DNA of 64,000 nt from an uncultured Thermoplasmata archaeon (GCA_963787975.1 CAWBEU010000007.1:429926-493925); one strand, 5' to 3'; counted from the first letter of the stretch, positions 3,366 to 63,011 are shown. Notes: a model not told the origin generated them from the sequence alone. Translations and numbers: made by a program.

Positions 3366-5183
3366 TCACCCGGACGGGGGACCGGGAGGAGGCGTCGGCG
3401 GGACCGGGAGAGCGGATAGCGCCTGCTGCTTCCGGCGACGGAGCCGGAGAACGATCAGGAGTGCAAGGATGACCACCACGACTACCACGATCGCGTAGAT
3501 CCACCAGCTGCTAGTCGAGCTGCTGGAGCTGGGTCCGGCGGACACGGTGACCGACACGGTCCTCGTGATCGAAGCTCCCGCGGAGTCGTGTAGAACCAAC
3601 TGGGCGGTGTACTGCCCGACCGCGGCGTACGCGCGCGTCGGGCTCTGGAGGGCCGAGGTGCCCCCATCCCCGAAGCTCCAGGCGTAGGTGTAGGGCGGCG
3701 TGCCTCCCCCGGGGGTCGGGGTGAAGGACACCGTCTGGTTGACTCGGGCACTGGTCGGCGATGCGGAGATGGTCAGCGTGAGCGGAGGCGGCGTCGCGGT
3801 GATGGTCCAATTCTGCACGACGGTGTTCGCCGCATGGTCCGTGACCGTCAACGTGGCGTTGTACTTCCCGGCGTTGGCGTACGTGTGACTGATGTTCCCC
3901 GCCGCCGAGTTCGCGGTCGAATCGTCGAAGTCCCAGGAGACGGTGTAGGGCGGGGTCCCTCCCGAAACGTCCGAGCTGAAGGCTACCTGCAGCGGGATCG
4001 GGCCGCTCTGCGGTTGCGCATTGGCGGTCACCTTCAAGGGGGGCGGAGGCACCCCTGACGTGAGATTGAGTTTCCAGGTCGAGTTCGTATACGTCGACGT
4101 CGACTCATCGAACAGGACGAGGTAATGATCGGCGTAGTCGTAGGTCATCTGGCCCCACGTCGTGGTCTGCGGCGGAGTGGGGACCAGGTTGTACGCCGCC
4201 CACGTCCCGGCCACGTAGGTGTACGTGGTCGACGAGTCCGCCGTGGGAGATCCGCCGAAGACGACCACCTTGGAGAGGGCGGGGTCGTAGGCCATCCCCG
4301 GTCCGGAGCGTGCGTCGGGCGCCCCCGAGGTGGAGACCGGACTCCAGGTCCCCCCGGAGTAGGTCCATGTGTCGTTGAAGTAGTCAGACACCCCCAGGCC
4401 GCCGAACAGGAGCATCTTGCCGTCCGCCCCATCGTACACCATGGTGGCGCCGTCTCGGCCCGGGGGGGCGACCACGGTTGTGACGTTGGTCCAGGTGTTG
4501 GCGTGGAACTCCCACGTCTGATTGGTGTACGCCTGGGACGGGGCGCCCCCCGTGTTTCCGCCGAACAGGAGCACCGAGCCGGTCTGGTTATCGTAGGCCA
4601 TCGAAGCCCAGAACATCCGCGGTGGCGAGTGGACCGGAGAGACGTTAGTCCAAACGCCGCCCGAGTAGGTCCACGTGTCATTCAGCCAAGAGGTCCGATA
4701 GGACGAACCCCCAAACAGGACGACCTCGTGATCGGCGGGGTCATCGGCGAGGCCGGCCCCCAGTCGGCCTGAAGGCGCATCGGCCGGGTTCGTCACGTTG
4801 GTCCATACGCCCCCGGAGAACGTCCACGTGTCATTCTGCCAGATTAAGGGGCCAGCGGAGTTGCTCTGACCCCCGAAGAGCAGGACGTACCCATCCTGGG
4901 AATCGAACACCATCCCGCCGGAAAGTCGAGGAGGCGGCATGTGCGCGGGAGAGATGTCCGTCCATTGGAACCCCGCGGCGACGGGGGCAGCCACTGCGCC
5001 CGGGGAGGGGAGGGGGAGCGAGTGCTCTACCGAGTAGGACTGCGCAATCGAGTTGGTACCGATTGACACGATCACCGTGCCGCGGTCGTGAACCCCCGAC
5101 AGTCCCGATGCGAGGATCGTAGACACTGTGACCGCGAGCACTAAGAACGCGATTCGGACCCCCGCCCGGCGCTGCGGATGCAT
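3366..5183 (-). CDS. Secreted Kelch-repeat beta-propeller plus two PKD domains, with C-terminal TM anchor and Pro-rich cytoplasmic tail
   Basis: N-terminal signal peptide MHPQRRAGVRIAFLVLAVTVSTILA. Repeated xLLFGG...GGVWTNV Kelch blades. Two PKD motifs (PPYTVSWDFDDS, PPYTYAWSFGDGGTS). C-terminal IYAIVVVVVVILALLIVLRLRRRKQQ TM helix with basic patch, then a PPTPPPGPPSG tail. Confidence 0.7.
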   Translation of the reverse strand: MHPQRRAGVRIAFLVLAVTVSTILASGLSGVHDRGTVIVSIGTNSIAQSYSVEHSLPLPSPGAVAAPVAAGFQWTDISPAHMPPPRLSGGMVFDSQDGYVLLFGGQSNSAGPLIWQNDTWTFSGGVWTNVTNPADAPSGRLGAGLADDPADHEVVLFGGSSYRTSWLNDTWTYSGGVWTNVSPVHSPPRMFWASMAYDNQTGSVLLFGGNTGGAPSQAYTNQTWEFHANTWTNVTTVVAPPGRDGATMVYDGADGKMLLFGGLGVSDYFNDTWTYSGGTWSPVSTSGAPDARSGPGMAYDPALSKVVVFGGSPTADSSTTYTYVAGTWAAYNLVPTPPQTTTWGQMTYDYADHYLVLFDESTSTYTNSTWKLNLTSGVPPPPLKVTANAQPQSGPIPLQVAFSSDVSGGTPPYTVSWDFDDSTANSAAGNISHTYANAGKYNATLTVTDHAANTVVQNWTITATPPPLTLTISASPTSARVNQTVSFTPTPGGGTPPYTYAWSFGDGGTSALQSPTRAYAAVGQYTAQLVLHDSAGASITRTVSVTVSAGPSSSSSTSSWWIYAIVVVVVVILALLIVLRLRRRKQQALSALPVPPTPPPGPPSG

Positions 5184-5410
5184 GCGGTCGGCACGAGGCT
5201 CCGGTACTTAGTAGAATTGACAAACTGCGCGGACCCGGGTTCAAGGAGTGCGGCCTGATCCGTTGAGGGGCCGAACATCCCGCGGCGGCGCAGCCCGCCG
5301 GCCCCGAAGCGTGCCCGGACCGGGTCGACCCCTCCTCGCCTGAGGGCCGGGTCTCAGCCGGCTCTAAATTCTCGCCCGGCCTCGGTTGAGGTGCCCGGCG
5401 AATCGAATCG

Positions 5411-6883
5411 ATGGCGAGTGCAGGTCGCGTGGCCACCGCCCACCCCATTAGTACCGCCATCGGTCGCTCAATCCTCGAGGAAGGCGGGAACGCTTACGAC
5501 GCCGCACTCGCCGTGAGTGCTTCCCTTCCCGTGGTCCTACCGCAGGCGAACGGGGTGGGCTCCGACCTGTTCGCGGTCATTCGGGACCAGTCGATAGAGA
5601 CGCTCAACGCCAGCGGGCCGTCGGCGGAACTGGCCACTCCCGAGCGGTTCGAGGCGGCCGGACGCACGGCTATCCCCGACCACGGACCCCTCGCGTCGTT
5701 CATGGTCCCGGGGCTCGTCGCCGCGTGGTCCTTCTTCGCGGAGCGGGCCACGATGCCCTTTCCTACACTGGTCGCGCCGGCGGTCCACTGGGCCCGGCAC
5801 GGGGTCCCCGTAACCCCGCTCCTTGCGACGGCGATTGCTGGGATGCCGTGGGCAGATCCCGACTGGCAGCGCACGTATCGAGGACACGGGGCAGGGAAAA
5901 CCTTGCGCCAACCAGACCTCGCCCGGACGCTCGAAGGAATCGCCCTCGACGGAGGGCACGGGTTCTACCACGGACCCCTGGCCCACCGGATCGAGCAAGA
6001 CATGCTCGACAAGGGCGGGCTGCTGCGCTTCGCCGACCTAGACCGCTACGAGCCGACCCACCCCGCCCCGCTCCGTGTTCGTTACCGGGGCTACGACGTG
6101 CTCACGACACCACCGAACAGTCAGGGCGCGACCGCGCTCTACTGGCTCGCTCGGCTGGAACACCATGCCCTAGCGGCGATGACTCCCTCCGAGTACGTCG
6201 CGACGCTTCTCGAAACGATGTACCCCGCGTACGAATTCCGCGCCCGCTACATCGGCGACCCCGATCGCCTACCCCTTCCTCCCGACTGGCTGGAGGCCCC
6301 AGCGAAGCCCCCATCGCACGACGCGGCGAGGAATCTTCCCCTCTCGGGCCGGGACACGACTGCTTTTTCCGTCTTCGACGGAACCATCGGCCTGAGCGTG
6401 ATCCAGAGTAACTACGAGGGCTTCGGATCCGGACACACCGTGGCCGGGACCGGGATCAACTTGAACGACCGAGGCACGTACTTCACGCTCGATCGGAATC
6501 ACCACAACGTCGTCGCTCCGCGAAAGAGGACGTTCCACACGCTCATGGCCACCGCCGCCGTCGGTCCGGAGATGATCCTCCTCGGGTCGATGGGCGGCGA
6601 TATCCAACCCCAGGTCAACGTGCAGGTGCTCTCGGGGATTCTGGACCGGGGCCTCACGGTCCAGGAAGCGATCGACGCTCCACGGTTCGCCTATCCGGCT
6701 TCCATCTATGGCTCCGCGGCGCTCATCGCAGAGGCGGGGCGAGGCCTATCGGACGTCCCGCCACCCGACCAGCCTTCGCAAATGGGCCACTGCCAGGGGA
6801 TCCAAGTCGGCGCCGGGGTCGCGGTCGGGATTGACCCCCGGGGAGAGGGTCGATTGCGTCTGCCCGGCGTGGATCCGCCCTGA
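5411..6883 (+). CDS. ggt: Gamma-glutamyltransferase family Ntn-hydrolase (no signal peptide)
   Basis: 490 aa. The TTAFSVFDG / GSGHTVAGTGINLND / SMGGD motifs match the GGT autoproteolytic Thr and catalytic core. Confidence 0.8.
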   Translation: MASAGRVATAHPISTAIGRSILEEGGNAYDAALAVSASLPVVLPQANGVGSDLFAVIRDQSIETLNASGPSAELATPERFEAAGRTAIPDHGPLASFMVPGLVAAWSFFAERATMPFPTLVAPAVHWARHGVPVTPLLATAIAGMPWADPDWQRTYRGHGAGKTLRQPDLARTLEGIALDGGHGFYHGPLAHRIEQDMLDKGGLLRFADLDRYEPTHPAPLRVRYRGYDVLTTPPNSQGATALYWLARLEHHALAAMTPSEYVATLLETMYPAYEFRARYIGDPDRLPLPPDWLEAPAKPPSHDAARNLPLSGRDTTAFSVFDGTIGLSVIQSNYEGFGSGHTVAGTGINLNDRGTYFTLDRNHHNVVAPRKRTFHTLMATAAVGPEMILLGSMGGDIQPQVNVQVLSGILDRGLTVQEAIDAPRFAYPASIYGSAALIAEAGRGLSDVPPPDQPSQMGHCQGIQVGAGVAVGIDPRGEGRLRLPGVDPP

Positions 6884-6965
6884 GACGAGCCGCGACGCGC
6901 GAGACCCACGGGCTTCCTAGATCAGCGCAACGTTCAACCTCTGGCCCGATTGGTCTACCGATACC

Positions 6966-7424
6966 ATGTCCGCGCCGGCCCCCAGAATCCGCGTCGTCCG
7001 CGCCACTCTCCAGGATATCGACCGCCTGGTCCCGCTCTTTGGGGCGTACCGGGAATTCTACCGTCGACCGGCCGACCCCGACGGCTCCCGACGCTTCCTC
7101 ACGGAGCGACTGACCCGGGGAGAGAGCGTCGTCTTCCTAGCGGAGGACCACACCCGTGCTCTCGGTTTCACTCAGCTGTACCCGACCTACGCCTCTCTGT
7201 CCATGAAGCCCTGGTGGGTACTGTACGATCTGTACGTCGTGCCAGCCGCCCGTCGGAAGGGCGTGGCGTCCCTCCTGCTCGACCGCGCGAAGCAGCTCGC
7301 AAAAGAGACCGGAGCCGACGGTCTCAGTTTGGAGACGGCCAAGGATAATCCGGCGCAAGCCCTCTACGAGGCGCACGGCTGGAAGCGCGACGAGCTGTTC
7401 CTCCACTACGAACTCTACCTCTAA
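6966..7424 (+). CDS. GNAT family N-acetyltransferase
   Basis: 152 aa with the acetyl-CoA binding motif VVPAARRKGVASLLL...AKETGADGLSLETAKDN. Confidence 0.8.
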   Translation: MSAPAPRIRVVRATLQDIDRLVPLFGAYREFYRRPADPDGSRRFLTERLTRGESVVFLAEDHTRALGFTQLYPTYASLSMKPWWVLYDLYVVPAARRKGVASLLLDRAKQLAKETGADGLSLETAKDNPAQALYEAHGWKRDELFLHYELYL

Positions 7425-7470
7425 CCTGCGCGCGGTTGCCGCGCCCTGCGGCGCGCGGGACGGGAGAGGC
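7425..7470. terminator. GC-rich dyad symmetries (gcgcggttgccgcgc / cgcgccctgcggcgcg) immediately after the GNAT stop codon
   Basis: Inverted repeats seen directly in the sequence. No T-tract follows, so a terminator function is uncertain. Confidence 0.25.
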
Positions 7471-7740
7471 TCCAGGTCGACTCACTCTCGCTGAATGTGG
7501 CCGGCACCGTTGGTCGGGGCGGGTCCCCTGGCAGGGTTTTTCCCAGCCCCCTTCCGATAGGCTTAGGAGCCCATCCCCTTTGGGAGGAAGACGCGTGGAA
7601 ATTCGCTCGTCAGCCCTATGCGAGCCTCTAAGGGTCCCTCGCCGTCGCCCGAGCCTCCGGGGCGGGCCCGCGCTCCTCAGCAGGCCGCTGAACAACCCGT
7701 CCGGTAAACAATCGAAATTCTTCGTGAGGAAGGGAAAACC

Positions 7741-10700
7741 ATGCAGGAAATGTTGAAGATGGGATCGCGCCCGCGCCGACTGGCGATGATCGTGTTCCTG
7801 GCTCTGCTCATGGCGCTGCCCGGGTCGGCCGTGCTCGCCGAACATGCCGTCTCGACTCCGGCCGCGCCGGTCGCTCTCTCGGCAGCGCAGCTGCAAGCCG
7901 CCCCCCTGACCCACGCGAGTCAAAGCCCCGCCTCGACACTCGGCCCGGCGAGAGATCTAGGCCAAATCGCCCCGTCCACTTCCTTCTACTTCACGGTCAG
8001 CTTCGACCTAAGCCATCAGGCCGCGTTGACCAACCTGATTCAAGAACAGGAATCCCCCGGGGGCGCGCTGTACCGTCACTACCTCACCCAGCAGCAATTT
8101 GACCAGGAATTCGGCCCCTCCCCACTGCTCGATACCGAAGCGACGAGTTACTTCACCTCCTTTGGGATGACGAGCGTCGCGACCGGCTCCCCGCTCGTGC
8201 TGGCGTTCAGGGCGCCCGCCAGCGCGGTAGAAGCTGCCTTCCATTCACCCATCGATCGATACCAGACGGCCGACGGAACGGTCCAGTACACGAACAGCAA
8301 GCCGCTCTCCCTCCCCGCACCTCTCGCGGGATTCCTCTCGTCCGTCAACGGCGTCTCGAGCTTCCCCGTGATGCAGCCGACCTTCATGGCCGCACCGGGG
8401 GCCAATCCCCAGCCCTTCGGCGGTTCGGCCGGCGCGCCCACCCCGCAGGGAACCATCAGTGAGGCGGTGAACTGGTCCACCCCGGCCTACCTCTACGCCC
8501 CCGCGGGCTCCGGCCCGACGTTCGGCGGAACACCGATCCAGTTCCTGAACCCCGCCACCATGACCGTCGCGTACAACGCGACCGGGCTGTATGCGTTGGG
8601 CGACGAGGGCCAGGGATCGACCATCGCCGTCGTCATGGGCGAAGGGTACAACCCTTCTGATCTCGCCACGTTCTCCAACGAAACCTTCGGGAACCCGAAC
8701 CAGCTCCTCGACCGTCTCAGCGCGTATCCGGTGGCCGGTCCCCTCGCGAACGCTACCGCGCCCGGTGCCGTGTACCAGACCGGAGGGCTGTCGTTCGAGT
8801 TCTCCATCGACCTCGAGTATTCCAGCACGATGGCACCGAAGGCCCACATCGACGCCGTCTACGGCACTGGCCTCGATACCGAATCGCTCGTCAGCGACTA
8901 CGCCAAGGTCGCGAGCCTGACACCGGTGCCGAACGTCGTGACGAACAGCTGGGGGGGCTCCGAGGACGCTTGGTGGAACGTCATGGGCCCCAGCTGGCAA
9001 GGCGGCGGCGCCATGGAGAGCCAGTTTGAGGAACTCGCCGCGCTCGGCTGCACGGTGCTCTTCTCCAGCGCCGACGACGCCGGGTTCGACAGCTTGACCG
9101 GCATGCTCTCGGCGAGCTTCCCCGCGACGAGCCCCTATGTCACCTCGGTGGACGGCACCCGCACAACGGTGGGCAATGGGGCCCTCGACTCCTTCCCGGC
9201 TCCGGACTACACGGTCAATACCACGGTAGCAGAGTTGGGGTCCTCCGAGACCGGCTCGGGGCCGTTCTGGTTCCCGAATGTCACCCTGAACGCGGTGAAT
9301 GTCGCCGCCGTAACGAACGAGAGTTACTGGTACACCCCGGCCTTTCCGGGGGCACCGGCGACGGTTCCGCCGTACGCCGGCGGCGGCATCGGATTGAGCA
9401 TGTTCTTCCAACAGCCCTGGTGGCAGCACGGTTTCAACGTTTCCGATTCGGGACGCCGGATGGCCGCGGACATCGCCGCGGAGGCCGATTTCAACGAGAC
9501 CGTCTACTTTGATTCCGCCTGGAACTTCTTCTGGGGCGGCACCAGCTTTGCGTGTCCCACGGTCGCGGGGGAGATCGCCCTCATCGACACCTATCTCAAT
9601 ACGACGCTGGGCCCCACCCCCGGGCAGCACAGCTACTACACCGGCCTGATCAATCCCCTGATCTACAACGTCGCGAACGACCAGAACATCACCACGCCCG
9701 GCTTCAATCAGATCACCTACGGCACCAATCCGTTTGCCGACCAGGCGGCGGCGGCCGGACTCGGATGGCCGGGCGCCCAGAACTGGCCCGGAACCGCGGG
9801 GGCATCCCTCTGGAGATGGAACCTCCTGACCGGCTGGGGCGTTCCGAATGTCGGCCAATTGGCCAAGGACGCCGCGACGATCCTAAGCCAGACCTACTAC
9901 GTGGCGTTCGCCAACAACACGGCCGCCCTAACCGCGCCGAACGGCACGTACACGTTCACGGTCCAGACGATCACGGGCCACACTCCGGCCGCCAGCGACC
10001 CGCTCCAACTGTGGTTCTCGCCCGCGGGCCCGGTGGGCCTTCCCGTTGAGACCCAAACCACCACGAGCGGCACCGGTACGTTCACCTTCGATGCAACGAC
10101 GCCGGGCTTTCTCGAGGTCTATGCCCAGCACGCCGGGGAGAAGATCTTCCAGTCGATCTGGTTCTCGCCAGCGCCGCTGACGAGCGGCACCCTTTCCATC
10201 GCGGTCACGGGCGGAACCCCGTCCTCCATGATGGGCGGCTTCGATGCGTACAGTTACTTCTACGACGCAGCGTATCCCGCCGCGGGACCGATCGAACCGA
10301 ACACCGTGATCGTGCAGGTCACGTACAAGGCTACGCCGAGCAGCGCCCCGGTAGATGTCTACAATGCCCAAGTCATCGGACAGACGAACTTCACGGGCTA
10401 CTGGGACTCGCCCCCGTTCGTCAGCAATCCGGAGTTCAACTCTGGACTGATCCCCTCCTCCCAGAACACGTCGCTGACGTTGACCAACCTGGACGGGATC
10501 TGGTACGTACCGACCTGGAACGTTCCGGTCACGGAGACGTACTGGATCAACGCCACCTACCTCGGCTTGTCGGCCTCGACGACCTATCTCGTCACCCCCC
10601 GTGCCAACGTGGAGGGGGTCGGCCCCGTCGAGACCGCGATCGCGGGCGAGTTCTTCGGGGCGCCGGGATACATTGGCTACAGCGGCAACAACACCGTCCT

Positions 10701-12144
10701 CGCTCCGGCGGTGACCGGGGACGGAACCTACTCCCTACCGGTCTCGTTCACGAACTGGGAGGGCGCGCCGCTGGTAGGGGCCTCGGTCGACCTCGCCTAT
10801 CCGCCGGTCTTCGGGCCGCCGTATCTGTCGACGCCGATCGCCGGCACGCAGGCGACCACGAACGCGACCGGTATCGCTGAGTTCACCATCGATTCGTCGC
10901 TCTCGGACCTCGGCGGCGAGATCGGGTTCCTGGCGATCCAGGTGTTCAACTCGAGCTACGCGGACGCCTACGTGGCCTCCGACGGCGCGCTAGGGGTCAC
11001 CCCGATCTGGCTCGACGATTCGCAGGGACTGCTGACCTTCTTCACGCCCCCGGCCAGCATGACCACGACGATGTACGCCGATGATGGCGCCGTTGCCTCC
11101 AATTACGTGGGCACGGAAGGAGCCGTCGCGGACTTCTCAGTCGCCTCGGCGGGAGGGGTCTTCTCCGCGTGGAACAACATCACTGCGCTCTCGTTTGCGC
11201 TGGATTCCGCGGCGCCGACCCCGGTACCGCTCGGCGACTACGGCCAGTCCTCCTATGCCTGGTCGGTGGACCTCCCGACGCTCACGGTCGGAGCGCACAC
11301 GTTCACCGTGTTGTTCGCGGACTCGCAAGGGTTCACCTTCAGCAACGTCCAAACGTTCTGGGTCATCGGCAGCGGCGCGCTGCCGACGCCCGCCGTGACG
11401 GTGACGGCGCCCACGGTCGACAGTTACGTGTCGGGCGACGTCTCGGTGAGCTGGACGGTCAATGAAGCGGCGGCGTACCTGGCGGACGAGACCCTGACCG
11501 TCGTGGACGGGAGCTTCTCGGCAACCTACGACGTGACCGGCGCCAGCAGCTTCGCGGTTCCGTCGACGGGACTTACCGCAGGCATGGTGACCTTCACCGT
11601 GAATGCAACGAACGTCCTGGGACTGTACGGCCTCGGCTCGGTCACCGCTTGGGTGGACAACGTGGCCCCGACGGCCACGATAACGAGCCCCGGCACCGGT
11701 GCGTCGTTCGTGGCCGGGTACACCGTGACGGTCGGCATGAGCTGGTCCGGCGACCTCCTCTCGAAGGAAGTGCTCACCATCCAGGCCCCTAGTGGCGCCC
11801 CGCAAACGGTGACCCTGACCTCGGACAGCTACTCGATCGGCAACGTGATCACGGGCACGTACACGTTGACCCTCAACGTTTCGAGCGCCTCCGGGGTCTC
11901 CGCGCACGACTCCGTATCGTTCACCGTGACGGCGGCGCCCCCTGTGGTGTCGAAAACGACCCCCGCGCTCACGAACGCGGAGCTCTACGGCATCGTCGGC
12001 GGCCTCGTGGTGCTGGCGGTGGCCATCATCATCGCGGCCCTGATCGTACGCAGCCGCCGGACTCAAGGGCCGCCCCCTGCCCAAGCGTGGAGCTCTCAGT
12101 CGGGGGCCCCGCCGCCAGCGAACCCTCCCTCCTCCGGCACCTGA
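7741..12144 (+). CDS. Giant secreted S53 (sedolisin/kumamolisin-like) serine peptidase: pro-kumamolisin activation domain and peptidase domain, then about 900 aa of Ig-like beta domains, a C-terminal TM anchor and a Pro-rich tail
   Basis: Signal peptide MGSRPRRLAMIVFLALLMALPGSAVLA. The propeptide signature YRHYLTQQQFDQEFGPS matches the pro-kumamolisin activation domain. GGTSFACPTVAGEIALI is the S53 catalytic Ser motif. Many N-x-S/T sequons. C-terminal LYGIVGGLVVLAVAIIIAALIVRSRR TM helix followed by PPPAQAWSSQSGAPPPANPPSSGT. Preceded by an SD-like gaggaaggg. Confidence 0.75.
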   Translation: MQEMLKMGSRPRRLAMIVFLALLMALPGSAVLAEHAVSTPAAPVALSAAQLQAAPLTHASQSPASTLGPARDLGQIAPSTSFYFTVSFDLSHQAALTNLIQEQESPGGALYRHYLTQQQFDQEFGPSPLLDTEATSYFTSFGMTSVATGSPLVLAFRAPASAVEAAFHSPIDRYQTADGTVQYTNSKPLSLPAPLAGFLSSVNGVSSFPVMQPTFMAAPGANPQPFGGSAGAPTPQGTISEAVNWSTPAYLYAPAGSGPTFGGTPIQFLNPATMTVAYNATGLYALGDEGQGSTIAVVMGEGYNPSDLATFSNETFGNPNQLLDRLSAYPVAGPLANATAPGAVYQTGGLSFEFSIDLEYSSTMAPKAHIDAVYGTGLDTESLVSDYAKVASLTPVPNVVTNSWGGSEDAWWNVMGPSWQGGGAMESQFEELAALGCTVLFSSADDAGFDSLTGMLSASFPATSPYVTSVDGTRTTVGNGALDSFPAPDYTVNTTVAELGSSETGSGPFWFPNVTLNAVNVAAVTNESYWYTPAFPGAPATVPPYAGGGIGLSMFFQQPWWQHGFNVSDSGRRMAADIAAEADFNETVYFDSAWNFFWGGTSFACPTVAGEIALIDTYLNTTLGPTPGQHSYYTGLINPLIYNVANDQNITTPGFNQITYGTNPFADQAAAAGLGWPGAQNWPGTAGASLWRWNLLTGWGVPNVGQLAKDAATILSQTYYVAFANNTAALTAPNGTYTFTVQTITGHTPAASDPLQLWFSPAGPVGLPVETQTTTSGTGTFTFDATTPGFLEVYAQHAGEKIFQSIWFSPAPLTSGTLSIAVTGGTPSSMMGGFDAYSYFYDAAYPAAGPIEPNTVIVQVTYKATPSSAPVDVYNAQVIGQTNFTGYWDSPPFVSNPEFNSGLIPSSQNTSLTLTNLDGIWYVPTWNVPVTETYWINATYLGLSASTTYLVTPRANVEGVGPVETAIAGEFFGAPGYIGYSGNNTVLAPAVTGDGTYSLPVSFTNWEGAPLVGASVDLAYPPVFGPPYLSTPIAGTQATTNATGIAEFTIDSSLSDLGGEIGFLAIQVFNSSYADAYVASDGALGVTPIWLDDSQGLLTFFTPPASMTTTMYADDGAVASNYVGTEGAVADFSVASAGGVFSAWNNITALSFALDSAAPTPVPLGDYGQSSYAWSVDLPTLTVGAHTFTVLFADSQGFTFSNVQTFWVIGSGALPTPAVTVTAPTVDSYVSGDVSVSWTVNEAAAYLADETLTVVDGSFSATYDVTGASSFAVPSTGLTAGMVTFTVNATNVLGLYGLGSVTAWVDNVAPTATITSPGTGASFVAGYTVTVGMSWSGDLLSKEVLTIQAPSGAPQTVTLTSDSYSIGNVITGTYTLTLNVSSASGVSAHDSVSFTVTAAPPVVSKTTPALTNAELYGIVGGLVVLAVAIIIAALIVRSRRTQGPPPAQAWSSQSGAPPPANPPSSGT

Positions 12145-23750: not shown

Positions 23751-23849
23751 GGGTTCGAACCAGTCCGGGCGCTGGTTTTCGCCCTATCCTCCCCCCCCTG
23801 ATATAGCCTCGCTCGCGGGGAAACCGAGGTCGTTTCCGGCCGCGGATTC

Positions 23850-25436
23850 TATACGGGTGCAGAGAGTTGCGCCGGCGCGCTGCCGCCGCTCCGGGCTGCG
23901 TTCCAATCCGCCAGGATGATCTGGGCCGCGTTGTGGCCCGGAGCGCCCAAGACCCCGCCCCCTGGATGGGTAGCGCAACCGCACAGGTAGAGCCCCGGAA
24001 GGGGGGTACGGGTACGAGGTCCAGCCCGGGACCGGCCGGAAGGAGAACAGCTGGTCCGGCGTGATGTCGCCCTGGTCGATGTTCCCCCCGGTCATCCCCA
24101 GGAGGTTCTCGATGTCCTGCGGGGTCACGACCTGCCAGTGCAGGACGGTTTGCCGGATGTCTGGCGCGTACTCCTCGATCGTATCGAGCACGGTCTCGGC
24201 CACGTGGGACCGGGCGTCATTCCAGTCCATTCCCCGAAGCTCCGTGGGCGCATACTCCACGAAGCACGTCATCGTGTGCTTGCCCGGGGGCGCGACGGAC
24301 GGGTCCAGGATGCTCTGGTGGTAGATGTCGATGTACGGCCGGTGAGAGAAGCGTCCATACTTCGCGTCATCGTAGGCCCGCTCGAGGTAGTCCATCGACG
24401 GGGCGATGTCGAGCGCCCCCGCCAGGCGCGAGGGGTCGGCGGCGGCCCGATAGTGCGGGAGCCGGTCCAACGCCGCGTTGAACTTGAGGCAGGCCCCCTC
24501 GTTCCGGATCTTCTTCACCCGGAGACGGAATCCCAGGTCCACGGCATCTTCTGGTAGCAGTCGAAAGAAGGTCTGCTTGAGGTCGAGGGAGGAGACGATG
24601 ATCGGCGCCCGATGGACCTCCCCGGTCTCCGTCTCGACCCCGACGGCCCGACCCGCCTCGACCAGGATCCGCCGCACGCCGGCGCCGGTCCGGATCTGCG
24701 CGCCGTAGTGCGTCGCGGCTCGGGCCATCGACTGCGTGATGTTCCCCATGCCCCCCTCGGCGATCCCCCAGATCCGGCGGTGACCTTCCAGGATCCCCAC
24801 GCTGTTGTGGGCGAGGATGTAGGCCGTGCCCGGCGTCCTCGGGCCCGCCAAGGTCCCGATGATCGACCCGGAGGCGAGGACGCCCTTGAGCTCCTCCGAC
24901 TCGAACCAGCCGTCCAACAGGTCGGCGGCGCTCTGGAGAAACAGGTCCTTGAGCACCTGCTGGGGGTCGCTCCCCGTCCAGTGGCTCAGCATCTCTCCGA
25001 GCGGCACCGGAGGGGCGAGGAGGATCGGCTCGATCTGGTCCATGATACCGTCCCACCAGGCGAGGTACTTGGGATAGGCCTCGGCGTCCTTCTTCGAGAA
25101 CCGGGCGATCTCCTTCTCGGTCTTCTCCTCGTTCACCCAGAAGGTCAGCGAACGGCCGTCGGGGAATGGCGCGAACCCCTGCGGGTCGCACAAGATCGGC
25201 CGGTAGCCGAACCGCTTGAGCTCGAGCTCCTCAACGATCTTCGGCCGCAGCAGTCCCGCGGCATACCCGAAGGTGCTGAGGCGGTAGCCCGGCCACGGCT
25301 CCTCCGTGACGGAGGCGCCCCCGACGATTCCGCGCTTCTCGAGGACCAGCACGCGCGCGCCGGCCCGGGAAAGGTAGCCTGCCGTGACGAGGCCGTTGTG
25401 CCCCGCGCCGACCACGATCGCGTCGAACTCGGCCAT
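23850..25436 (-). CDS. PYROXD2/CrtI-like FAD-dependent (amine-oxidase fold) oxidoreductase, paralog 1; +1 frameshift near 23990-24000
   Basis: [16 protein letters not shown] Rossmann start. The frame breaks at GWTSY|[30 protein letters not shown]: an extra C in taccc-g shifts the conserved C-terminus into another frame, with stop near 23850. Confidence 0.75.
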
Positions 25437-29699: not shown

Positions 29700-31371
29700 C
29701 GTGCGACCACTGGGGGCTGCGGGCGCTCATGCTCCACCCCTATCGTCCGGTATGTGAGGGGGCGGGATCCAAGGTCCTCGAGCACGGCGTGCGCGGCGTT
29801 GTGGCCCGGAGCCCCCATCACACCACCGCCGGGATGTGCCGTTGCTGCGCACAGGTACAGTCCAGGCACGGGAGTCCGGTAGCCCGACCAACCGATGAGG
29901 GGCCGGAACCGAAAGATCTGATCCGGGCTCATGTTGCCTTGGAAGATATTCCCCCCGGACAGCCCCACCGTGCGTTCGATATCCACCGGAGAGATGATCT
30001 CCGAATGTTCAACGGTCCTCCGTATCTCGGGGGCGTACTCCTCGAGCGTCCGCAGCACGATCTCCGCGGCTTCGGGCCGGAAATCGTCCCACGTCGTTCC
30101 TCGCAGCTCGTAGGGAGCGTATTGCACGAAACAGGTCATCGTATGCTTGCCGGGGGGCGCCATCGACGGGTCGGCGGCGCTCTGGAACAGGATGTCCATG
30201 TACGGTCGCTCAGAGAAGCGGCCGTACTTCCCCGCGTCATAGGCGCGCTCGAGGTACTCCATGGAGGGGGCGATCTCCACCTCCCCCTTGTGCGGGCCGC
30301 CCGGGCCGGCCCAGGCGGAGAACCTTGGAAGCCCGTTCAACGCCGCATTGAACTTGAGGGAGGCGCCGTCGCTCCGGAACTTCCGGACCCGATCGAGTTC
30401 CCGGTCGGGTAGAACGTCGGGGGGAGGAGCTTCAGCACGGTCTGCCGGACGTCGAGCGCTGACAACACCACGCGGGCCTCTATCTGCTCTCCTGACTCGG
30501 TCTCGACGCCCACGGCCCGTCCGTCGTGAATCCGCACCTGGCGGACCCCTGTCCGGACTCGAATCGTCGCCCCGAAGTGTTCAGCCGCGCGCGCCATCGC
30601 CTCGGTAATCCGCCCCATGCCCCCGACGGCGAACCCCCAGGCCTGCCGTACTCCGTCGAGGACGGTGGCATTGTGGTGCGCGAGCACGTAGGCGGTTCCC
30701 GGCGTTCGGGGGCCGCACATCTCTCCGATGAGTCCGTTGATCGCCAAGGACGCCTTCAGCTGGTCGCTCTCGAACCATCCGTCGAGAAACTCCTCCACGC
30801 TGAGGAGAAACAGGTCGCGCAGAAGTTCGTCGATCCCTTGGCTCTCGAACTGGGCGAGGAGTTCCGGAAGCGGCGCGGGCGCTCGGAGGAGCAACGGCTC
30901 CAGAATGTCCAGGGTGCGCTCCCAGTACTCCACGTACCGAGGGTACGCCTGGGCGTCGCGCCGGGAGAACTTCGCAATCTCGCGCAGGGTGGCCTCCTCG
31001 TCGCTCCAGACGGTCAGCGATCGACCGTCCGGAAACGGACAGAATTCGGCCGGCGCGCAGGGGAGAGTCCGGAATCCGAACCTCCGAAGCTCCAGATCGT
31101 CGATGATCTCCGGTCGCAGCATGCCCGCGACGTAGGAGTAGGTATTGATCCGGAACCCTGGCCACGGCTCCTCGGTCACGCACGCCCCGCCCACGTGATC
31201 CTGCCGCTCGAGCACGAGGGTCCGGAGCCCGGCTTTGGCGAGGTAGCCGGCGGCGACCAGGCCATTGTGCCCTCCGCCCACTATCAGGGCGTCGTAGCTC
31301 TCCATCCGCGAAGGAGCAGAGGAAGAAGGGGATAGGTCTTCTCGCGCACCACGTCCCGCGACTTGAACCAC
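29700..31371 (-). pseudogene. PYROXD2/CrtI-like FAD oxidoreductase, paralog 2: split by a frameshift in a C6/C7 run near 30385 and lacking an in-frame stop after the conserved C-terminus
   Basis: N-half 30337..31371 ([16 protein letters not shown]) ends in junk. The correct continuation LLPPDVLPDRELDRVRKFRSDGASLKFNAALNGLPRFSAW is in another frame. The C-half (in ORF 29003..30340) reads through AVLEDLGSRPLTYR... for about 230 codons into the aminotransferase gene. A 1-nt change in cccgccccc would restore a stop. Confidence 0.6.
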
Positions 31372-33002: not shown

Positions 33003-33105
33003 GCGCGGGGCAGCCCGGTTCCGATATTTAAGGCGCGGCTCGTCCCACGAACGAACTCGAAACGCACGGCGCGTGATATTAAGCGAGGGTCCGGTTCCGG
33101 GGGAG

Positions 33106-45501: not shown

Positions 45502-47089
45502 TCAGCTCCCCGACGAAGGAGGGGACGGCGTGGCGCCCGACGTCCTGCGCCAGTCCTCCAAGATGATCTGGGCGGCGTTGTGACCGGCGGCACCCGTGAC
45601 CCCGCCGCCGGGGTGGGCGGCCGAACCGCAGAGGTACAGGCCGGGCAGAGGGGTCCGGGACCTGCACCCACCCCGGCACAGGCCGGAAGGAGAGGATCTG
45701 GTCCGGCGTGATATCTCCCTGGAAGATGTTGCCGCCGGTCATCCCGAGGGTGCTCTCGATGTCCTTCGGCGTGACAACCTGCCAGTGCTCGACGACCCGC
45801 CGGATGTTCGGGGCATACTCCGCGATCGTATCCAGCACCCGCTCCGCCGCGGTGCTCTTGTAGGAATCCCAGTCGGTCCCGCGCAGCTCCGTCGGGGCGT
45901 ACTGGACGAAACAGGTCATCGTGTGCTTCCCCGGGGGAGCGACGGACGGGTCGAGCGCGCTCTGGAACAGCATCTCGATGAACGGCTGGGAGGAGAACCG
46001 GCCCTCCATGGCGTCGCGGTACCCCCGCTCGAGATACGCCAGCGACGGGGCGATGTCGACGGTCGAGCGATGGGCATCGCTCGGAGCGCCCGGGTCCGCC
46101 GTGAACTCCGGTAGCGCGGACAGCGCCGCATTGAACTTGAGGGCGGCGCCCCGGGAACGGATGCCCCGAACCTCCTTCTCGAACTCCGGGGAGAGGGAAC
46201 CGGGGGGCGCCAGCTTGAGGAACGTGGTCTGGGCGTCGGCGTTCGACGCCACGATCGGGGCCGAGATCGTCTCGCCCGACACCGTCTCGACCCCCGTGAC
46301 GGCCCCGTGCTGGACCACGAAGTTCTTTACGGCTACTCCGGTGCGAATCTGAACGCCGTTCGCGACGGCGGCCCGGGCCAGCGCCTGGGTGATCCCGCCC
46401 ATCCCGCCCACGGAGAACCCCCAGACTTGCTTGTGCCCATCGAGGTTGCCCACGTTGTGGTGGGCGAGGACGTAGGCGGTGCCGGGGGTGCTGGGACCGC
46501 ACATCGTTCCAATGACGGCGTTGGGCGCGAGGACGGCCTTGACCTCGTCGGACTCGAACCACTCATCGAGCAGGTCCTGCGCGCTGCGGAGGAACAGGTC
46601 CCGGACCACGGTCTCGGTCTCGGGCGTGGAGAACATCTGAAACATCTCGGCCAGCGGCGCCGGCGGGGCCAGCATCACCGGCTCGATCAGCTCGAGCACG
46701 CGGTCCCAATACTCGACGTACTTCGGATAGGCGCGAGCGTCCTGCACGGAGAATTTGGCGATCTCCTTCGCCGCGCGCTCCGTGTCGACCCACAGCTTGA
46801 GGGCCCGGCCGTTCGGAAACGGCATGCAGTACTGCGGGTCGTAGAGGATCGTGCGATACCCATACTTTGGGAGCTCGAGGTCGTCGACGATCTCCTGGCG
46901 CATCAATCCCGCCACGTAGGAGAAGGTGTTGATCTTGAACCCGGGCCACGTCTCCTCCGTGATCGCCGCGCCACCCACCACGGGCCGTCGTTCGAGCACG
47001 AGGACGCGGGCCCCCGCCCGTCCGAGATAGTTGGCTGCGACCAGTCCGTTGTGGCCCCCGCCGACTACGACGACGTCCCACTGGCTCAC
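45502..47089 (-). CDS. PYROXD2/CrtI-like FAD oxidoreductase, paralog 5; +1 frameshift near 45610-45616
   Basis: [16 protein letters not shown] start. The frame breaks at GWVQV|[36 protein letters not shown] (extra C in gtccc-gg), the same alignment position as in paralog 1. The corrected stop falls at about 45502, directly before the cupin ATG. Confidence 0.75.
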
Positions 47090-47122
47090 GTCATCGCTCC
47101 CCGGACGGCGGCGCGGTCACGC

Positions 47123-58147: not shown

Positions 58148-58792
58148 ATGCCCGGCGCACCGAACAAGCCTCCCCCCATGGAGGCGCCACCTACCCCGAT
58201 ATCGCCCCCCGCCGGGGACAAGAGACAGCACGCGCTCCGCCGCCTTGCCCCGGCCCGGCTGGTGCTCCGGCTCTCGATCTGGCGAGGTGCTCCGAACGCC
58301 GACCTGGTGAAGCCGCTCGAACGCGTCGCGGCGACGCTCGCCGCAGGCGAGTTTCCCGACGCCGAGAAAGCGCTCGACCAGTTCTCGGTGCGGCTCGCCG
58401 AACCCCGCTGGCCTACGATCCCTGAACCTTGGATCCGGCTCCGTACTGCGATTCCCGCGCCGCAGCCGCCGCACTGGGATCCCGATTTCAAGCTTACCCC
58501 GGCCGACCGCGAGGCGAAGAAGAACCGCGAGTGGGCCCGCAATCAACTGCTCCTCGCCAAGGGGGCGTTGGAACTCGCGCCGAGCCTCGGCGTGGACCTG
58601 ACCGACGTGCAGTCGTGCGTTGCCGAGGCGCAGACCGTCTTCGACCGCGACGGCGCCACCGACGAATTTTGGGCGCTTCTCGACCGACTCTGGGACGCCG
58701 TCCAGAGCCGCGTTCCGCTCCCGTCGCCGGCGGCGGCCCGCGCCGCACCGCCGGCGAAGCTACCCCCGGGCATCGAGCCCGAGGAAGCCTAG
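58148..58792 (+). CDS. Hypothetical protein
   Basis: 214-aa ORF with no recognisable motifs. Pro-rich termini. Confidence 0.3.
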   Translation: MPGAPNKPPPMEAPPTPISPPAGDKRQHALRRLAPARLVLRLSIWRGAPNADLVKPLERVAATLAAGEFPDAEKALDQFSVRLAEPRWPTIPEPWIRLRTAIPAPQPPHWDPDFKLTPADREAKKNREWARNQLLLAKGALELAPSLGVDLTDVQSCVAEAQTVFDRDGATDEFWALLDRLWDAVQSRVPLPSPAAARAAPPAKLPPGIEPEEA

Positions 58793-58853
58793 CATCGACC
58801 CGGGACCCACCCCCGTGGGCCTTATGGCTCCGGACTCTCCCCTCTCTCGACCC

Positions 58854-59903
58854 ATGCAGAGCCCGCTGCGATCCCCCCACGGTACTTTCTCGATCGTCGC
58901 GTGGGATCCCCACCGAGGAGAATGGGGGGTCGCCCTCCAATCGAAATTCATCGCCGCCGGAGCCGTGGTGCCCTGGGGGCAAGCGGGCGTCGGTGTGCTC
59001 GCCACGCAGGCCATGTCGGATGGGTCCCAGGGACCCAAGGGACTCGAGCTGTTACGGAAGGGTCTCTCCGCTCCCGAGGTCGTGGCACGACTGAGCAAGG
59101 AGTCGCCGGACCGCGACGACATCCAGATCGGGGTAGTCGATGGAAAGGGACGCGCTGCCGCCTTCACGGGTTCGCGGTGCCTCGAGTGGGCGGGCCACGT
59201 GGTCGGAGACGGGTATGCGTGCCAGGGGAACATCCTGTTCTCGGCCGAGGTCGTCCACGCGATGGCGCGGACCTTCGAGACCACCCCCGGCGATCTTCCC
59301 GAGCGGTTGCTCGCGGCGCTGGTCGCGGGCCAGCGCGAAGGGGGGGACCGACGTGGAATGCAGTCCGCCGCGCTGCTCGTGTGGAAGGAACGGGGCGGCT
59401 ACCGCGGGGGCCTCGACCGCTGGGTCGACGTGCGGGTCGACGACCACGCCACCCCGATAGAGGAGCTCGACCGGATCTTCCGGATATACGACATGACCCT
59501 GCTGGCACGGGAGGACCCCGCCTCGCTGCGCCCCCTCGATCCCGAGACCGTCATGTCTGTCCAGCGATCGCTCGGAGTGCTCGGATTTCTCTTGGGCCCG
59601 AAGACCGGCACGTGGGACACCGCGACCGCGAAGGCGTTCGCGAAGTTCGTGAGCGAGCACAATTTCGAGAACAAGGTCCGGACGGACGGCAAGATCTGGC
59701 CCTCGATCGTGCGCTATTTAGATATGAAGAGCGCCGAGGAGCTCGCTCGACGCGAGACCATGGCACCGATCCGCCCCGGTGCGCTCGACCAAGGCCCCGG
59801 CGGCGGAGCGCACGGCGCTCCGCCCACGCGTCCGCCCGGAGGTGGAAGTCCATCGTCGACGCCCCCGAACGAGAAACCACATCGCCGGCACAGATCCAAG
59901 TGA
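58854..59903 (+). CDS. DUF1028 (Ntn-hydrolase-like) domain protein with a C-terminal peptidoglycan-binding-like (PG_binding_1) domain
   Basis: Likely start MQSPLRSPHGTFSIVAWDP (DUF1028 N-terminus). C-terminal QRSLGVLGFLLGPKTGTWDTATAKAFAKFVSEHNF matches the PG_binding_1 helical motif. Coordinates of the 3' end are taken from the ORF track; my manual base counting was off by one there. Confidence 0.6.
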   Translation: MQSPLRSPHGTFSIVAWDPHRGEWGVALQSKFIAAGAVVPWGQAGVGVLATQAMSDGSQGPKGLELLRKGLSAPEVVARLSKESPDRDDIQIGVVDGKGRAAAFTGSRCLEWAGHVVGDGYACQGNILFSAEVVHAMARTFETTPGDLPERLLAALVAGQREGGDRRGMQSAALLVWKERGGYRGGLDRWVDVRVDDHATPIEELDRIFRIYDMTLLAREDPASLRPLDPETVMSVQRSLGVLGFLLGPKTGTWDTATAKAFAKFVSEHNFENKVRTDGKIWPSIVRYLDMKSAEELARRETMAPIRPGALDQGPGGGAHGAPPTRPPGGGSPSSTPPNEKPHRRHRSK

Positions 59904-61255: not shown

Positions 61256-61939
61256 CTACGGCACGTACGCGCGTCGGAGATCCTCGAGGCCTACGGACTC
61301 GGCCGCAAGCCCCAGCTCACGAACCCCGCGGATCTCCACGGTCATCTCGAGGGCCCGAGCGCTTTCGGCCGGGGTGGGTTTGCGGGCTTTGCGCAAGATC
61401 CGCTCGTTCACCGCCACCACCCCGGGAGGCGAGAACCGGAAACGATTCCACCCGACGCCGGTCTCCGTGACGGCCTCGAGGACGTCGCCATCCGGGGCTC
61501 GGGTCAGGCTCCGGGCGGAGGTGAGCACGGGGGCGTCGAGGAGGGCCGCCACTTCCGGCCCGACCTGCCCGGTGTCGGAGTCGATGGACCGCTCGCCGGC
61601 CAGGACCAGGTCGTGCCCGACGGTCCGCAGCGCGGCGTGAAGCACGCGGGCGGTCACGAGGGTATCGGACCCGGCCAGGGCCCGGTCGGTGACGAGCACT
61701 ACCCGGTCCGCACCTAAGGCGAATGTTTCCCGGAGCTGGACCTCGGCTTCCGGTAGGCCCATGGAGAGTACTGTAACGTGTTCGCCGGGGCGCCTCAGTT
61801 GAACGGCGATTCGGACGGCGCGGCTATCGTTGGGATTCAGAAAGGATTGGACGCCGGTCCGGATCAGGGTCTTCCGCTCGGGGTCGAAATGAAGCTGCTC
61901 GACGGCGGGGACTACCTTGACGAGCACCGCGAAATCCAT
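61256..61939 (-). CDS. etfB: Electron transfer flavoprotein beta subunit
   Basis: MDFAVLVKVVPAVEQLHFDPE matches the EtfB N-terminus. Located upstream of etfA on the same strand. Confidence 0.8.
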   Translation of the reverse strand: MDFAVLVKVVPAVEQLHFDPERKTLIRTGVQSFLNPNDSRAVRIAVQLRRPGEHVTVLSMGLPEAEVQLRETFALGADRVVLVTDRALAGSDTLVTARVLHAALRTVGHDLVLAGERSIDSDTGQVGPEVAALLDAPVLTSARSLTRAPDGDVLEAVTETGVGWNRFRFSPPGVVAVNERILRKARKPTPAESARALEMTVEIRGVRELGLAAESVGLEDLRRAYVP

Positions 61940-62096
61940 CGAGGGACCTGAGGACGCTTCCACGCGTCGAAGGTGTAATTACCGTTGCCCGTTCGCGAGA
62001 GCGTCCCCGGATCCCCTATGGGTCTCCCTACCAATCGAGCGAACGAACCACCGCCGGAGAAGGTCGCGTCGCTCGCCGCGTACTTCGCGGCCGTCA

Positions 62097-63011
62097 GTGA
62101 TCACGGTCCTCGCGATCCTGAGCCAGTACTTCCTCCCGCAACTCGTGCCGGCCGTCCGGCCGGTGTACGCCACGCTGGCGACGGGCCTCCTGGTCATCTA
62201 CGGGATTCCAATCCTCGCCTTTGTCCTCCTGGTGGGCATCGGACCCCTGCGACGGTTCTTCTCGAACCCTGGGTCCGCCGTGGTCGAGGGCCTCCGATGG
62301 TACGGGGCGATGTCCATCTTGGGCCTGTTGGCGGCGTTTACAATCGTGGCGGTACTGTCCGCCATCGATCCTTCGGCCGTTTCTCAGCTGAGCAGGCTCA
62401 GCCCCCCTCTGGTTGCAGCAGAGTCCGACCCGTGGTTCTGGGTCGGGTTCTCTTTCGTCATCGGCATCGTCGAGGAGACGATCTTTCGGGGATGGATCTT
62501 CGGCTACTGGCTCCTGCGGAGTCCATCCCAGTGGTTCGTTCACGCCGTGTGGACCAGCCTGCTCTTCGCGAGCATGCATCTGTACTACGGGAACACCTAC
62601 GGGCTCGCGTCGGGTGTCGCGTTCGCGGAACTTTTCTTCGCGGGGCTCGGCTTCGCGTTCGCGGTCCGTTACTCCCGGGGAAACCTTCTCGTCGTGGGAT
62701 TGCTCCACGGCGCACACGACGCGCTGAGCTTCTCCACGCTGGTCTGGAAACCGTTCGGCATCGAGTTGTACTACCTCCTGATCCTTGTCGGAGCGTTCGT
62801 CTTCCTCGCGGTGTTCCTCCGGCAGCGTCAGGTGGCCCAACGCGGACCGATGATCCCCTGGGAGATGGGCCAGACCCCAGCCCCGGCGGCCCCAGTGTTC
62901 CCCGGGGGAAATCCGGCCATCCGCTGGCCACCGCCACCCTCCGATCCCTACGACCGTCCTCCGCTTCCTTCGCCGCCTCCCCCGGGGGACCCGGGGCCCC
63001 CCTCGGGGTAG
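62097..63011 (+). CDS. CPBP-family (CAAX/Abi) intramembrane metalloprotease with a Pro-rich C-terminal tail
   Basis: Probable GTG start at 62097 (VITVLAILSQYF). EETIFRGW, FASMHLYYG and LLHGAHDALSF are CPBP motifs 1-3. Tail ...PPLPSPPPPGDPGPPSG. Confidence 0.65.
   Translation: MITVLAILSQYFLPQLVPAVRPVYATLATGLLVIYGIPILAFVLLVGIGPLRRFFSNPGSAVVEGLRWYGAMSILGLLAAFTIVAVLSAIDPSAVSQLSRLSPPLVAAESDPWFWVGFSFVIGIVEETIFRGWIFGYWLLRSPSQWFVHAVWTSLLFASMHLYYGNTYGLASGVAFAELFFAGLGFAFAVRYSRGNLLVVGLLHGAHDALSFSTLVWKPFGIELYYLLILVGAFVFLAVFLRQRQVAQRGPMIPWEMGQTPAPAAPVFPGGNPAIRWPPPPSDPYDRPPLPSPPPPGDPGPPSG

Follow-up and report, generated by a model that had tools for sequence, protein, structure and literature searches.

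Do unrelated membrane proteins of an archaeon that end in the same few residues carry a common tag, or has each family reached this ending on its own? The question arises from a 64,000-nt stretch of DNA from an uncultured Thermoplasmata archaeon (GCA_963787975.1 CAWBEU010000007.1:429926-493925, called the window below), in which a Kelch/PKD protein, an S53 peptidase and a CPBP protease all close, after their last transmembrane (TM) helix and a basic patch, with a Pro-rich tail ending in GPPSG or PPSSG. The initial annotation of the window had proposed a lineage-specific cytoplasmic sorting, anchoring or protein-interaction tag. We analysed the 48 called genes of the window and 290 non-gene open reading frames (ORFs) of at least 60 aa, and compared them with fetched loci and proteins, which are labeled with L and P numbers (L002, P0242). 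The window has a GC content of 65-68%, and homologues of its proteins came almost only from metagenome-assembled genomes (MAGs) named "Thermoplasmata archaeon". The explanation that we favour, with a probability of about 0.55 for the whole, is that the tails are real and family-specific, that the PPSG ending is convergent, and that the tails would function as contact or spacer elements.

Three inherited tails on the cytoplasmic side

The Kelch/PKD protein ends in WWIYAIVVVVVVILALLIVL-RLRRRKQQALSALPVPPTPPPGPPSG (GPPSG), the S53 peptidase in LYGIVGGLVVLAVAIIIAALIV-RSRRTQGPPPAQAWSSQSGAPPPANPPSSGT (PPSSGT), and the CPBP protease in RQRQVAQRG...WPPPPSDPYDRPPLPSPPPPGDPGPPSG (GPPSG, stop at 63011), as the initial annotation had quoted them, and its Pfam assignments of the three proteins agree with our Pfam scan (Table 1). 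Its estimate of 20-45 aa for the tails holds for Kelch/PKD (26 aa) and S53 (31 aa) and is too short for CPBP (63 aa). The Kelch/PKD protein and the S53 peptidase both have an N-terminal signal-like helix, an ectodomain rich in N-x-S/T sequons and a single C-terminal TM helix followed by RLRRRK or RSRR. The Kelch/PKD protein is laid out as an N-terminal signal/anchor, a Ser-rich stalk and a C-terminal TM helix, and its AlphaFold 2 (AF2) model has a helix at 9-26 and the strands of the propeller and PKD domains. By the positive-inside rule, the Arg/Lys patch after the TM helix places both tails in the cytoplasm, and the AF2 secondary structure agrees. In the CPBP protease, eight TM helices followed by RQRQxAQRG place the C-terminus on the same side. 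The topology thus supports the cytoplasmic location that had been assigned to the tails.

At least five genes of the window appear frameshifted (listed below), so ORF-based gene calls need care here and a check of the tails for artefacts matters. The Kelch/PKD and S53 tails recur unchanged in another MAG (99.8% identity), and the CPBP end does so in L083 and L084, which are short-read assemblies. Since the tails are kept by orthologues (45-92% identity) and by independent assemblies, read-through, stop slippage and assembly or annotation errors were rejected. The purifying selection on the S53 and CPBP tails, described below, supports the exclusion of read-through, which the initial annotation had kept as an alternative.

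About 50 orthologues of the Kelch/PKD protein (40-80% identity, from Thermoplasmata MAGs) all have TM-RRRK followed by a Pro-rich stretch, with a median tail length of 25 aa and 28% Pro. Their ends vary (PPSG, PPSA, PPVP, GGSRD, GPSE, PPPS and others), and what is kept is PP/PPP runs, composition and length rather than the sequence or the end. Terminal PPxG was not enriched in these tails (1 observed versus 0.97 expected), and internal PP[ST]G was modestly enriched (9/51 versus 3.3 expected). The ratio of non-synonymous to synonymous substitution rates (dN/dS) was 0.44-0.67 in the tail compared with 0.19-0.36 in the body. The tail has 8 Pro in its last 25 residues, no DSSP structure and an AF2 predicted local distance difference test (pLDDT) score of 45-49, which classify it as disordered polyproline-II. 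These results show that the Kelch tail is of a generic type, TM-RRRK-(20-25 aa polyproline/Ser/Thr/Gly), predicted to be disordered.

The S53 peptidase matched the Pro-kumamolisin activation domain with 66 bits, and its catalytic domain was seen solely as Peptidase_S8, in some orthologues; on these matches it is a putative S53 peptidase. A search of the genome contigs with S53 found one locus. The orthologue in L002, with a body 74-75% identical, has the tail RSRRHQGPPPAQAWSSQSGSPPANPPSSGS, which is 90% identical to that of the window. Between the two tails, the proportions of synonymous (pS) and non-synonymous (pN) differences were 0.44 and 0.107, and dN/dS was ~0.17 versus 0.23 in the body. 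The orthologue P0242 ends in PPSSGS, and the PPSSG[ST] end is restricted to orthologues of at least 74% identity. Those at 67-73% identity have different P/S/G tails, and those at 43% have very short tails (RRKPPV) or none. As read from these alignments, the S53 tail is clade-restricted and under purifying selection at the protein level.

The CPBP protease is a member of its family (PF02517, 50.7 bits versus a gathering threshold of 22.4). The EExxxR, FxxxH and HxxxD/N motifs are present, and 106 homologues show no variation at E152, E153, R157, H187 and H230 and almost none at D234. The AF2 model, made with a 106-sequence alignment, has 8 TM helices with a mean pLDDT of 91. In the Foldseek search, 4cad (MmRce1) had the highest probability for this model, 0.91, with a TM-score of 0.40-0.50, but E was 0.75. 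The gene starts at ATG 62018, and a 1-nt insertion at ~62087-62106 shifts the frame of the first ~25 codons relative to L083. A 364-aa ORF from 61917 is an artefact of this insertion, and the C-terminus is unaffected. The neighbourhood of the gene is conserved and of a housekeeping kind, with electron transfer flavoprotein (ETF), a coenzyme A (CoA)-binding protein and isoleucyl-tRNA synthetase (IleRS).

In CPBP orthologues of 45-92% identity, the tails are 45-70 aa long with ~38% Pro, and the nearer clade keeps GNPAIxWPPPP..YDRPPLPxPPPP..[DE]PG.PP(x)G-COOH. Tails ending in PP.?G numbered 40 of 97 versus 2.3 expected from shuffling, and those ending in Gly 43 versus 8.2; the tail sequences are mutually related, so these figures overstate independence. 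The tail core had a pN of 0.19-0.25 versus 0.065-0.098 in the body, at a pS of 0.58-0.76 where synonymous sites are saturated. Judged by these substitutions, selection acts on the tail at the peptide level, with a constraint ~2-3 times weaker than that on the body. Its AF2 pLDDT was 68-82, and 82 in the last ten residues, which is unusual for a low-complexity tail and does not classify it as disordered polyproline-II. The protein resembles other CPBP/Rce1-like proteases in the EExxxR, FxxxH and HxxxD motifs and the predicted 8-TM fold, and its subfamily differs from them in the conserved Pro-rich tail ending in PP(x)G. In the literature searched, no such tail of 45-70 aa was found on characterised CPBP members. 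As far as these comparisons reach, the tail is specific to this Thermoplasmata subfamily.

Two further observations concern the CPBP gene. Between the window (62820-63008) and the closest orthologue in L083 (1640-1826), pS was 0.24 in the body, dropped to 0.04 over the tail and was 0.00 in the last 34 codons, with non-synonymous differences of ~0.06-0.08. A nucleotide-level constraint or an overlapping element was rejected, as tail pS equals body pS (0.55-0.76) in all more distant pairs. Since these pairs show no drop, a local recombination tract in the closest pair is the most likely cause. The other concerns P0172 (444 aa, from a Joint Genome Institute metagenome), in which the protease is fused to the downstream CoA-binding (PF13380) protein and the stop after the Pro-rich tail is apparently lost or shifted; the window counterpart of the fused protein lies at 63011-63522.

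Among orthologues, tails are therefore present in the Kelch, CPBP and nearer S53 proteins, and are short or missing in distant S53 proteins. Together, these results establish that the tails of all three membrane proteins are translated, vertically inherited segments on the cytoplasmic side, each evolving within its own family.

Convergence of the PPSG ending

Is the common ending a matter of chance? Within the window, it is not. Three of the 48 called genes end in PPS(S)G.?$, compared with 0 of the 290 non-gene ORFs. Shuffling of the last 25 residues gave a mean of 0.03 such genes, with a maximum of 1 in 5000 shuffles. In a test without a preset motif on 7 Pro-containing tails, the probability that any pair shares its last 6 residues was 2e-4, and 1e-3 for the last 5. 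The Kelch and CPBP tails share the end PGPPSG, and its codons differ at 4 of 6 third positions. Because of these differences and the unrelated flanking DNA, the match lies at the protein level, and a DNA repeat, a mobile element or a terminator over the stop codons was rejected.

The ending is rare elsewhere. Of the 441 called genes in 82 fetched loci, one ends in PP[ST]{1,2}G.?$, and it is an S53 orthologue. A metagenome search with the Kelch alignment (80 loci, 28-53% identity, GC 36-75%) added little beyond this rarity.

The ending is also found outside membrane proteins. A fourth end of the PPS(S)G type (TPSPPSSGS, stop at 45502, minus strand) belongs to a soluble CrtI-like FAD oxidoreductase, and other CrtI-like paralogues end in LPALKKG, in SPLRTPG or in a different 12-residue sequence. 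The Pro-rich tails recorded earlier on an aminotransferase and a DUF1028 protein, both soluble, are conserved in relatives, as is the tail of a soluble 214-aa protein. The aminotransferase extension is kept in L002, so it is not a product of read-through; in the window it reads …SPVPPASTSPARPHPEP…SPPPPGRSLR. In 20% of the window genes, the last 20 residues are at least 65% P/S/G/A/T, versus 3.9% of internal segments. Moreover, the C-terminal residue is Gly in 24% of window genes and in 19% of genes in close relatives (L001, L002, L083-L087), versus ~9-9.5% among residues overall and 10-13% at the ends of non-gene ORFs. The lineage as a whole may favour Gly in front of the stop codon.

These results show that the PPSG ending is a short convergent motif that comes from Pro-rich composition, a modest preference for PP[ST]G and a lineage-wide excess of C-terminal Gly, and that it is not a transferable sorting module. 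The single shared P-P-S-G tag of the initial annotation was not borne out: terminal PPxG is at the chance level in the Kelch family, the S53 ending is confined to a narrow clade, the CPBP motif is family-specific, soluble proteins are tailed as well, and the ending was found in 1 of 441 genes of other loci.

What recurs in other proteins is the layout around the tail. A 46-position profile of TM helix, RRRK and tail was searched against 1.84 billion representative proteins and gave 227 matches at E <= 1e-3, many at the extreme C-terminus. Since the profile takes in the TM helix, the matches are not an unbiased test of enrichment. The 54 matches scanned with Pfam carried PKD (14), NHL (11), YncE/lactonase propellers, Big_13, Kelch, SprB, fn3, FG-GAP and other surface-type domains. 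Ten matches were looked up by cluster, and the two with organism names were from Thermoplasmata. Terminal PPS(S)G occurred in 3 of 76 matches versus 0.39 expected, a biased figure because the profile was built from tails with the motif. On present evidence, TM-RRRK-polyproline is a common C-terminus of predicted surface proteins in Thermoplasmata. The search for such C-termini that had been suggested at the outset found the architecture on many proteins with surface-type ectodomains, and a terminal PPSG that is not general. In the literature searched, nothing relevant was found on Pro-rich tails in Thermoplasmata or other archaea.

A second feature was seen at the outer edge of the TM anchor. 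In the Kelch family and in many unrelated profile matches (P0278-P0415), a Ser/Thr-rich stalk is followed by a Trp-rich motif (WW[IV]Y, WxW or LWEI; window 3447-3520, minus strand), which S53 lacks. The profile covered this position, so the recurrence of the motif is partly built in.

Known systems, proposed function and rival explanations

The tailed proteins were compared with the tripartite sorting signals, namely LPXTG/sortase, PGF-CTERM/archaeosortase A, PEP-CTERM/exosortase, GlyGly-CTERM/rhombosortase and MYXO-CTERM/myxosortase. In both cases, secreted proteins with domains of the surface type have a TM helix at the C-terminus and, after it, an Arg/Lys cluster. Unlike these signals, the window proteins have no common motif before the TM helix, extend 20-60 residues past the basic cluster and are not linked to a dedicated sorting enzyme. 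No signature before the TM helix was common to Kelch/PKD (...SSTSSWWIY-TM) and S53 (...TNAELYG-TM), and the tails run 20, 27 and ~55 residues past the basic residues in Kelch/PKD, S53 and CPBP rather than ending near them. None of the NCBIfam/TIGRFAM C-terminal sorting models reached its cutoff on the tail-bearing proteins. The best scores were 17.3 for GG_III-CTERM (cutoff 22), 14.3 for LPXTG_anchor (15.9), 10 for Heimdall-CTERM (24) and 7.6 for GlyGly-CTERM (15.5), and the matches span the TM helix and basic patch only. This agrees with the earlier judgement that the tails do not have PGF-CTERM or LPXTG architecture.

The MYXO-CTERM system deserves separate mention, as one of the three tailed proteins is a CPBP protease, the family of myxosortase. 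In Myxococcus, CPBP proteases have been proven to act in sorting by C-terminal TM signals, and the MYXO-CTERM signature there carries an invariant Cys (PMC11980579). No Cys was found in the stalk, TM helix or tail of Kelch/PKD or S53. The window protease scored 22.8 bits with MrtS (cutoff 130) and 17.7 bits with MrtJ (cutoff 75), the CPBP sorting proteases in NCBIfam, and does not fall into a dedicated subfamily. A sorting or anchoring role of the tails is pure speculation.

Eukaryotic Pro-rich cytoplasmic tails are ligands for SH3, WW, GYF and EVH1 domains or profilin; for example, PPPGHR in the CD2 tail is bound by a GYF domain. The window tails are like them in their short PxxP, PPLP and PPxG elements and in forming a cytoplasmic polyproline-II tail on a receptor-like protein that spans the membrane once. 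Unlike them, the Kelch family keeps the composition of the tail and not a motif.

According to the reading that we prefer, of family-specific tails with a convergent ending, the tail of the type-I surface proteins would be a stiff polyproline-II stretch that prolongs the stop-transfer anchor into the cytoplasm. It would most likely offer contacts of the PxxP/PPxG type to a partner in the cytoplasm or close to the membrane. Its consecutive Pro, ~30-50 codons downstream of the point where the TM helix starts, may also pause the ribosome, as a side effect or a co-function. The CPBP tail would most likely pack back on the cytoplasmic face of the enzyme, where its free carboxy-terminus, PP(x)G, would make a specific contact.

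Several points weigh against this reading. No reader domain for Pro-rich tails was identified in this archaeon, nor any binding partner, and the function of the tails is only what we infer. An identical end such as the PGPPSG of Kelch and CPBP would rarely arise by shuffling (P ~2e-4), so some common selective cause is conceivable. Enrichment among membrane proteins was tested on the window and six loci, whose genes are largely mutual orthologues. The order of the CPBP tail is taken from pLDDT and not from contacts read from the model. In addition, the Kelch tail is weakly constrained (dN/dS 0.44-0.67) and could be near-neutral.

It is unlikely that the tails are a neutral by-product of a 66% GC genome with rare stops, in which unconstrained C-termini extend and drift to Pro/Gly/Ser/Ala low complexity and the shared end is coincidental. 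Drift would account for the low-complexity tails that are common on soluble proteins, for the separate short tail of each CrtI-like paralogue, for the varied ends and lengths and the dN/dS of 0.44-0.67 of the Kelch tails, and for the distant S53 orthologues without a tail. The length of the S53 tail and its Pro count also rise with the GARP/FYMINK ratio of the body, a proxy of GC (rho 0.48, p 0.018, n 24), a correlation confounded by clade. In the Kelch and CPBP families, however, tail length was not correlated with this ratio (rho -0.07 and -0.10) and Pro count likewise did not rise, so that GC-driven tail growth was rejected for two of three families. Pro makes up 28-38% of the tails, far above Ala, Gly and Arg, whose codons are GC-rich too. 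Furthermore, pN is well below pS in the S53 and CPBP tails, the CPBP tail keeps non-Pro residues (GNPAIxW, YDR) and the terminal Gly across 45-92% identity, and the motif was absent from the ends of non-gene ORFs.

A role of the tails in translation alone also has a low probability. It holds that polyproline slows the ribosome in an aIF5A-dependent way and that ~25-60 extra residues let the last TM helix exit the tunnel and insert before chain release. Polyproline motifs of E. coli and B. subtilis occur in excess after TM helices, at ~45 codons from the start of the helix, and a supporting role in co-translational insertion was proposed for them (Qi et al. 2018, PMC5811046). The window tails are alike in having consecutive Pro a few tens of codons after the TM helix (clusters at ~28-50 residues from its start), and the retention of PP/PPP runs and length rather than sequence in Kelch-type tails fits such a role. 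They are unlike the bacterial elements in lying at the very C-terminus, in being far denser (30-50% Pro) and in occurring on soluble proteins too. Distant S53 orthologues manage without a tail, and the CPBP tail keeps specific residues other than Pro and is predicted to be ordered. The ribosome exit tunnel is usually estimated to hold 30-40 residues, and the Kelch tail of ~26 aa is shorter than this.

A true lineage-specific tag, with tails ending in PP[ST]G-COOH that would have a dedicated reader or be substrates of the co-encoded CPBP protease, is quite improbable. It would be a myxosortase-like system with the signal on the cytoplasmic side. The 3-4 of ~49 window proteins ending in PPS(S)G are far above expectation, PP[ST]G is in excess in Kelch tails, as is PPS(S)G at the ends of the profile matches, and the window protease, from a family with proven sorting enzymes in Myxococcus (PMC11980579), matches MrtS and MrtJ weakly. 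Yet the profile enrichment is biased by construction, and the protease lies far below both cutoffs. The motif is not kept in Kelch orthologues or in S53 orthologues of 73% identity or less, it is found on the soluble CrtI-like enzyme, and it was rare in the fetched loci. There is no common pre-TM signature (WWIY in Kelch, AELYG in S53) and no invariant Cys, and the CPBP gene stands in its housekeeping neighbourhood rather than beside candidate substrates.

An extended form of this idea would be a Thermoplasmata-specific recognition system, in which the CPBP protease or a polyproline reader binds or trims the PP(x)G-COOH tails of C-terminally anchored surface proteins and the PP(S)G tail of the protease, conserved and predicted to be ordered, fills its own cytoplasm-facing active site as a pseudo-substrate. 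Such a cytoplasmic-side counterpart of myxosortase/MYXO-CTERM is very improbable. Finally, that frameshifts or missed stops in homopolymer-rich DNA made false Pro-rich C-termini is effectively refuted for the three tails, since, despite the apparent frameshifts and the indel-prone poly-C/G runs of the window, independent short-read assemblies and other MAGs (74-99.8% identity) carry these tails as well and the CPBP tail codon alignments stay in frame across L083, L086 and L087.

Genomic setting and meaning of the tails

The features discussed above are listed in Table 1. The order Kelch/PKD, gamma-glutamyltranspeptidase, GNAT acetyltransferase, S53 (window 3366-12144) is kept in relatives at 56-73% identity (L085 3205-11854; L001), so the tail-bearing Kelch/PKD and S53 proteins are stable neighbours. 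Scans of the window for tRNA genes and Rfam matches found none.

Five paralogues of CrtI/phytoene-desaturase-like FAD oxidoreductases lie within 24 kb (23849-25436, 29756-31371, 31443-33158, 33968-35680 and 45502-47107), interspersed with two ABC transporter clusters of the Opp/Dpp type. They have a common core (...HPGGGVTG...ILxD). The C-termini of four of them were read, and each of these has a short tail of its own, of low complexity, after the core. The apparent frameshifts, relative to orthologues or paralogues, are at 62087-62106, 61274-61283, 45657-45671, 30406-30424 and 23994-24010, and affect the CPBP N-terminus, a fused ETF beta/alpha gene and three CrtI-like paralogues. They suggest indel errors of a long-read assembly or genuine pseudogenisation.

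Table 1. Positions in the window of the tail-bearing proteins, their membrane anchors and their C-terminal tails.
Feature	Position	Strand	Basis or remark
Kelch beta-propeller protein with 2 PKD domains, type-I surface protein	3366..5183	-	605 aa; Pfam Kelch and PKD matches
Kelch/PKD C-terminal TM anchor WWIYAIVVVVVVILALLIVL	3447..3506	-	AF2 helix 560-586
Kelch/PKD cytoplasmic tail RLRRRK + QQALSALPVPPTPPPGPPSG, 26 aa	3369..3446	-	Sequence; orthologues
S53 (sedolisin/kumamolisin-type) peptidase, long C-terminal Ig-like region, C-terminal TM	7741..12144	+	1467 aa; Pfam Pro-kuma_activ
S53 C-terminal TM anchor LYGIVGGLVVLAVAIIIAALIV	11983..12048	+	Sequence
S53 cytoplasmic tail RSRRTQGPPPAQAWSSQSGAPPPANPPSSGT, 31 aa	12049..12141	+	Sequence; orthologues
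CPBP (Rce1-like) glutamic intramembrane protease gene	62018..63011	+	Pfam Rce1-like; motifs EETIFR, FASMH, HGAHD
CPBP cytoplasmic tail RQRQVAQRG...GNPAIRWPPPPSDPYDRPPLPSPPPPGDPGPPSG, 63 aa	62820..63008	+	Sequence; orthologues
Aminotransferase (soluble), Pro-rich C-terminal extension, ~47 aa	18192..18332	+	Kept in L002 8338-9834 (…SPPPPGRSLP)
CrtI-like FAD oxidoreductase, short C-tail (15 residues)	45505..45549	-	Gene frameshifted near 45657-45671
214-aa soluble protein, Pro/Ala-rich C-tail	58709..58789	+	Kept in L087 6132-6776
DUF1028 protein, Gly/Pro/Ser-rich C-tail	59769..59900 (approximate, counted back from stop)	+	tblastn with L086 and L088 orthologues covers whole protein and tail, 88-89% identity

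The evidence now consists of conserved low-complexity tails and a weak convergent motif. It is useful for annotation, as such tails are not errors, and it does not amount to a new system. The CPBP subfamily is the more concrete biochemical lead, with a conserved, apparently ordered Pro-rich tail and an almost fixed PP(x)G carboxy-terminus in a family whose prokaryotic functions are mostly obscure. Should the TM-RRRK-polyproline architecture have a function, it would mark a large class of surface proteins in Thermoplasmata that is absent from the catalogues, with ectodomains of the PKD, NHL, YncE, Kelch or peptidase type. Archaea could then use cytoplasmic polyproline tails on surface proteins, as is otherwise known from receptors of eukaryotes.

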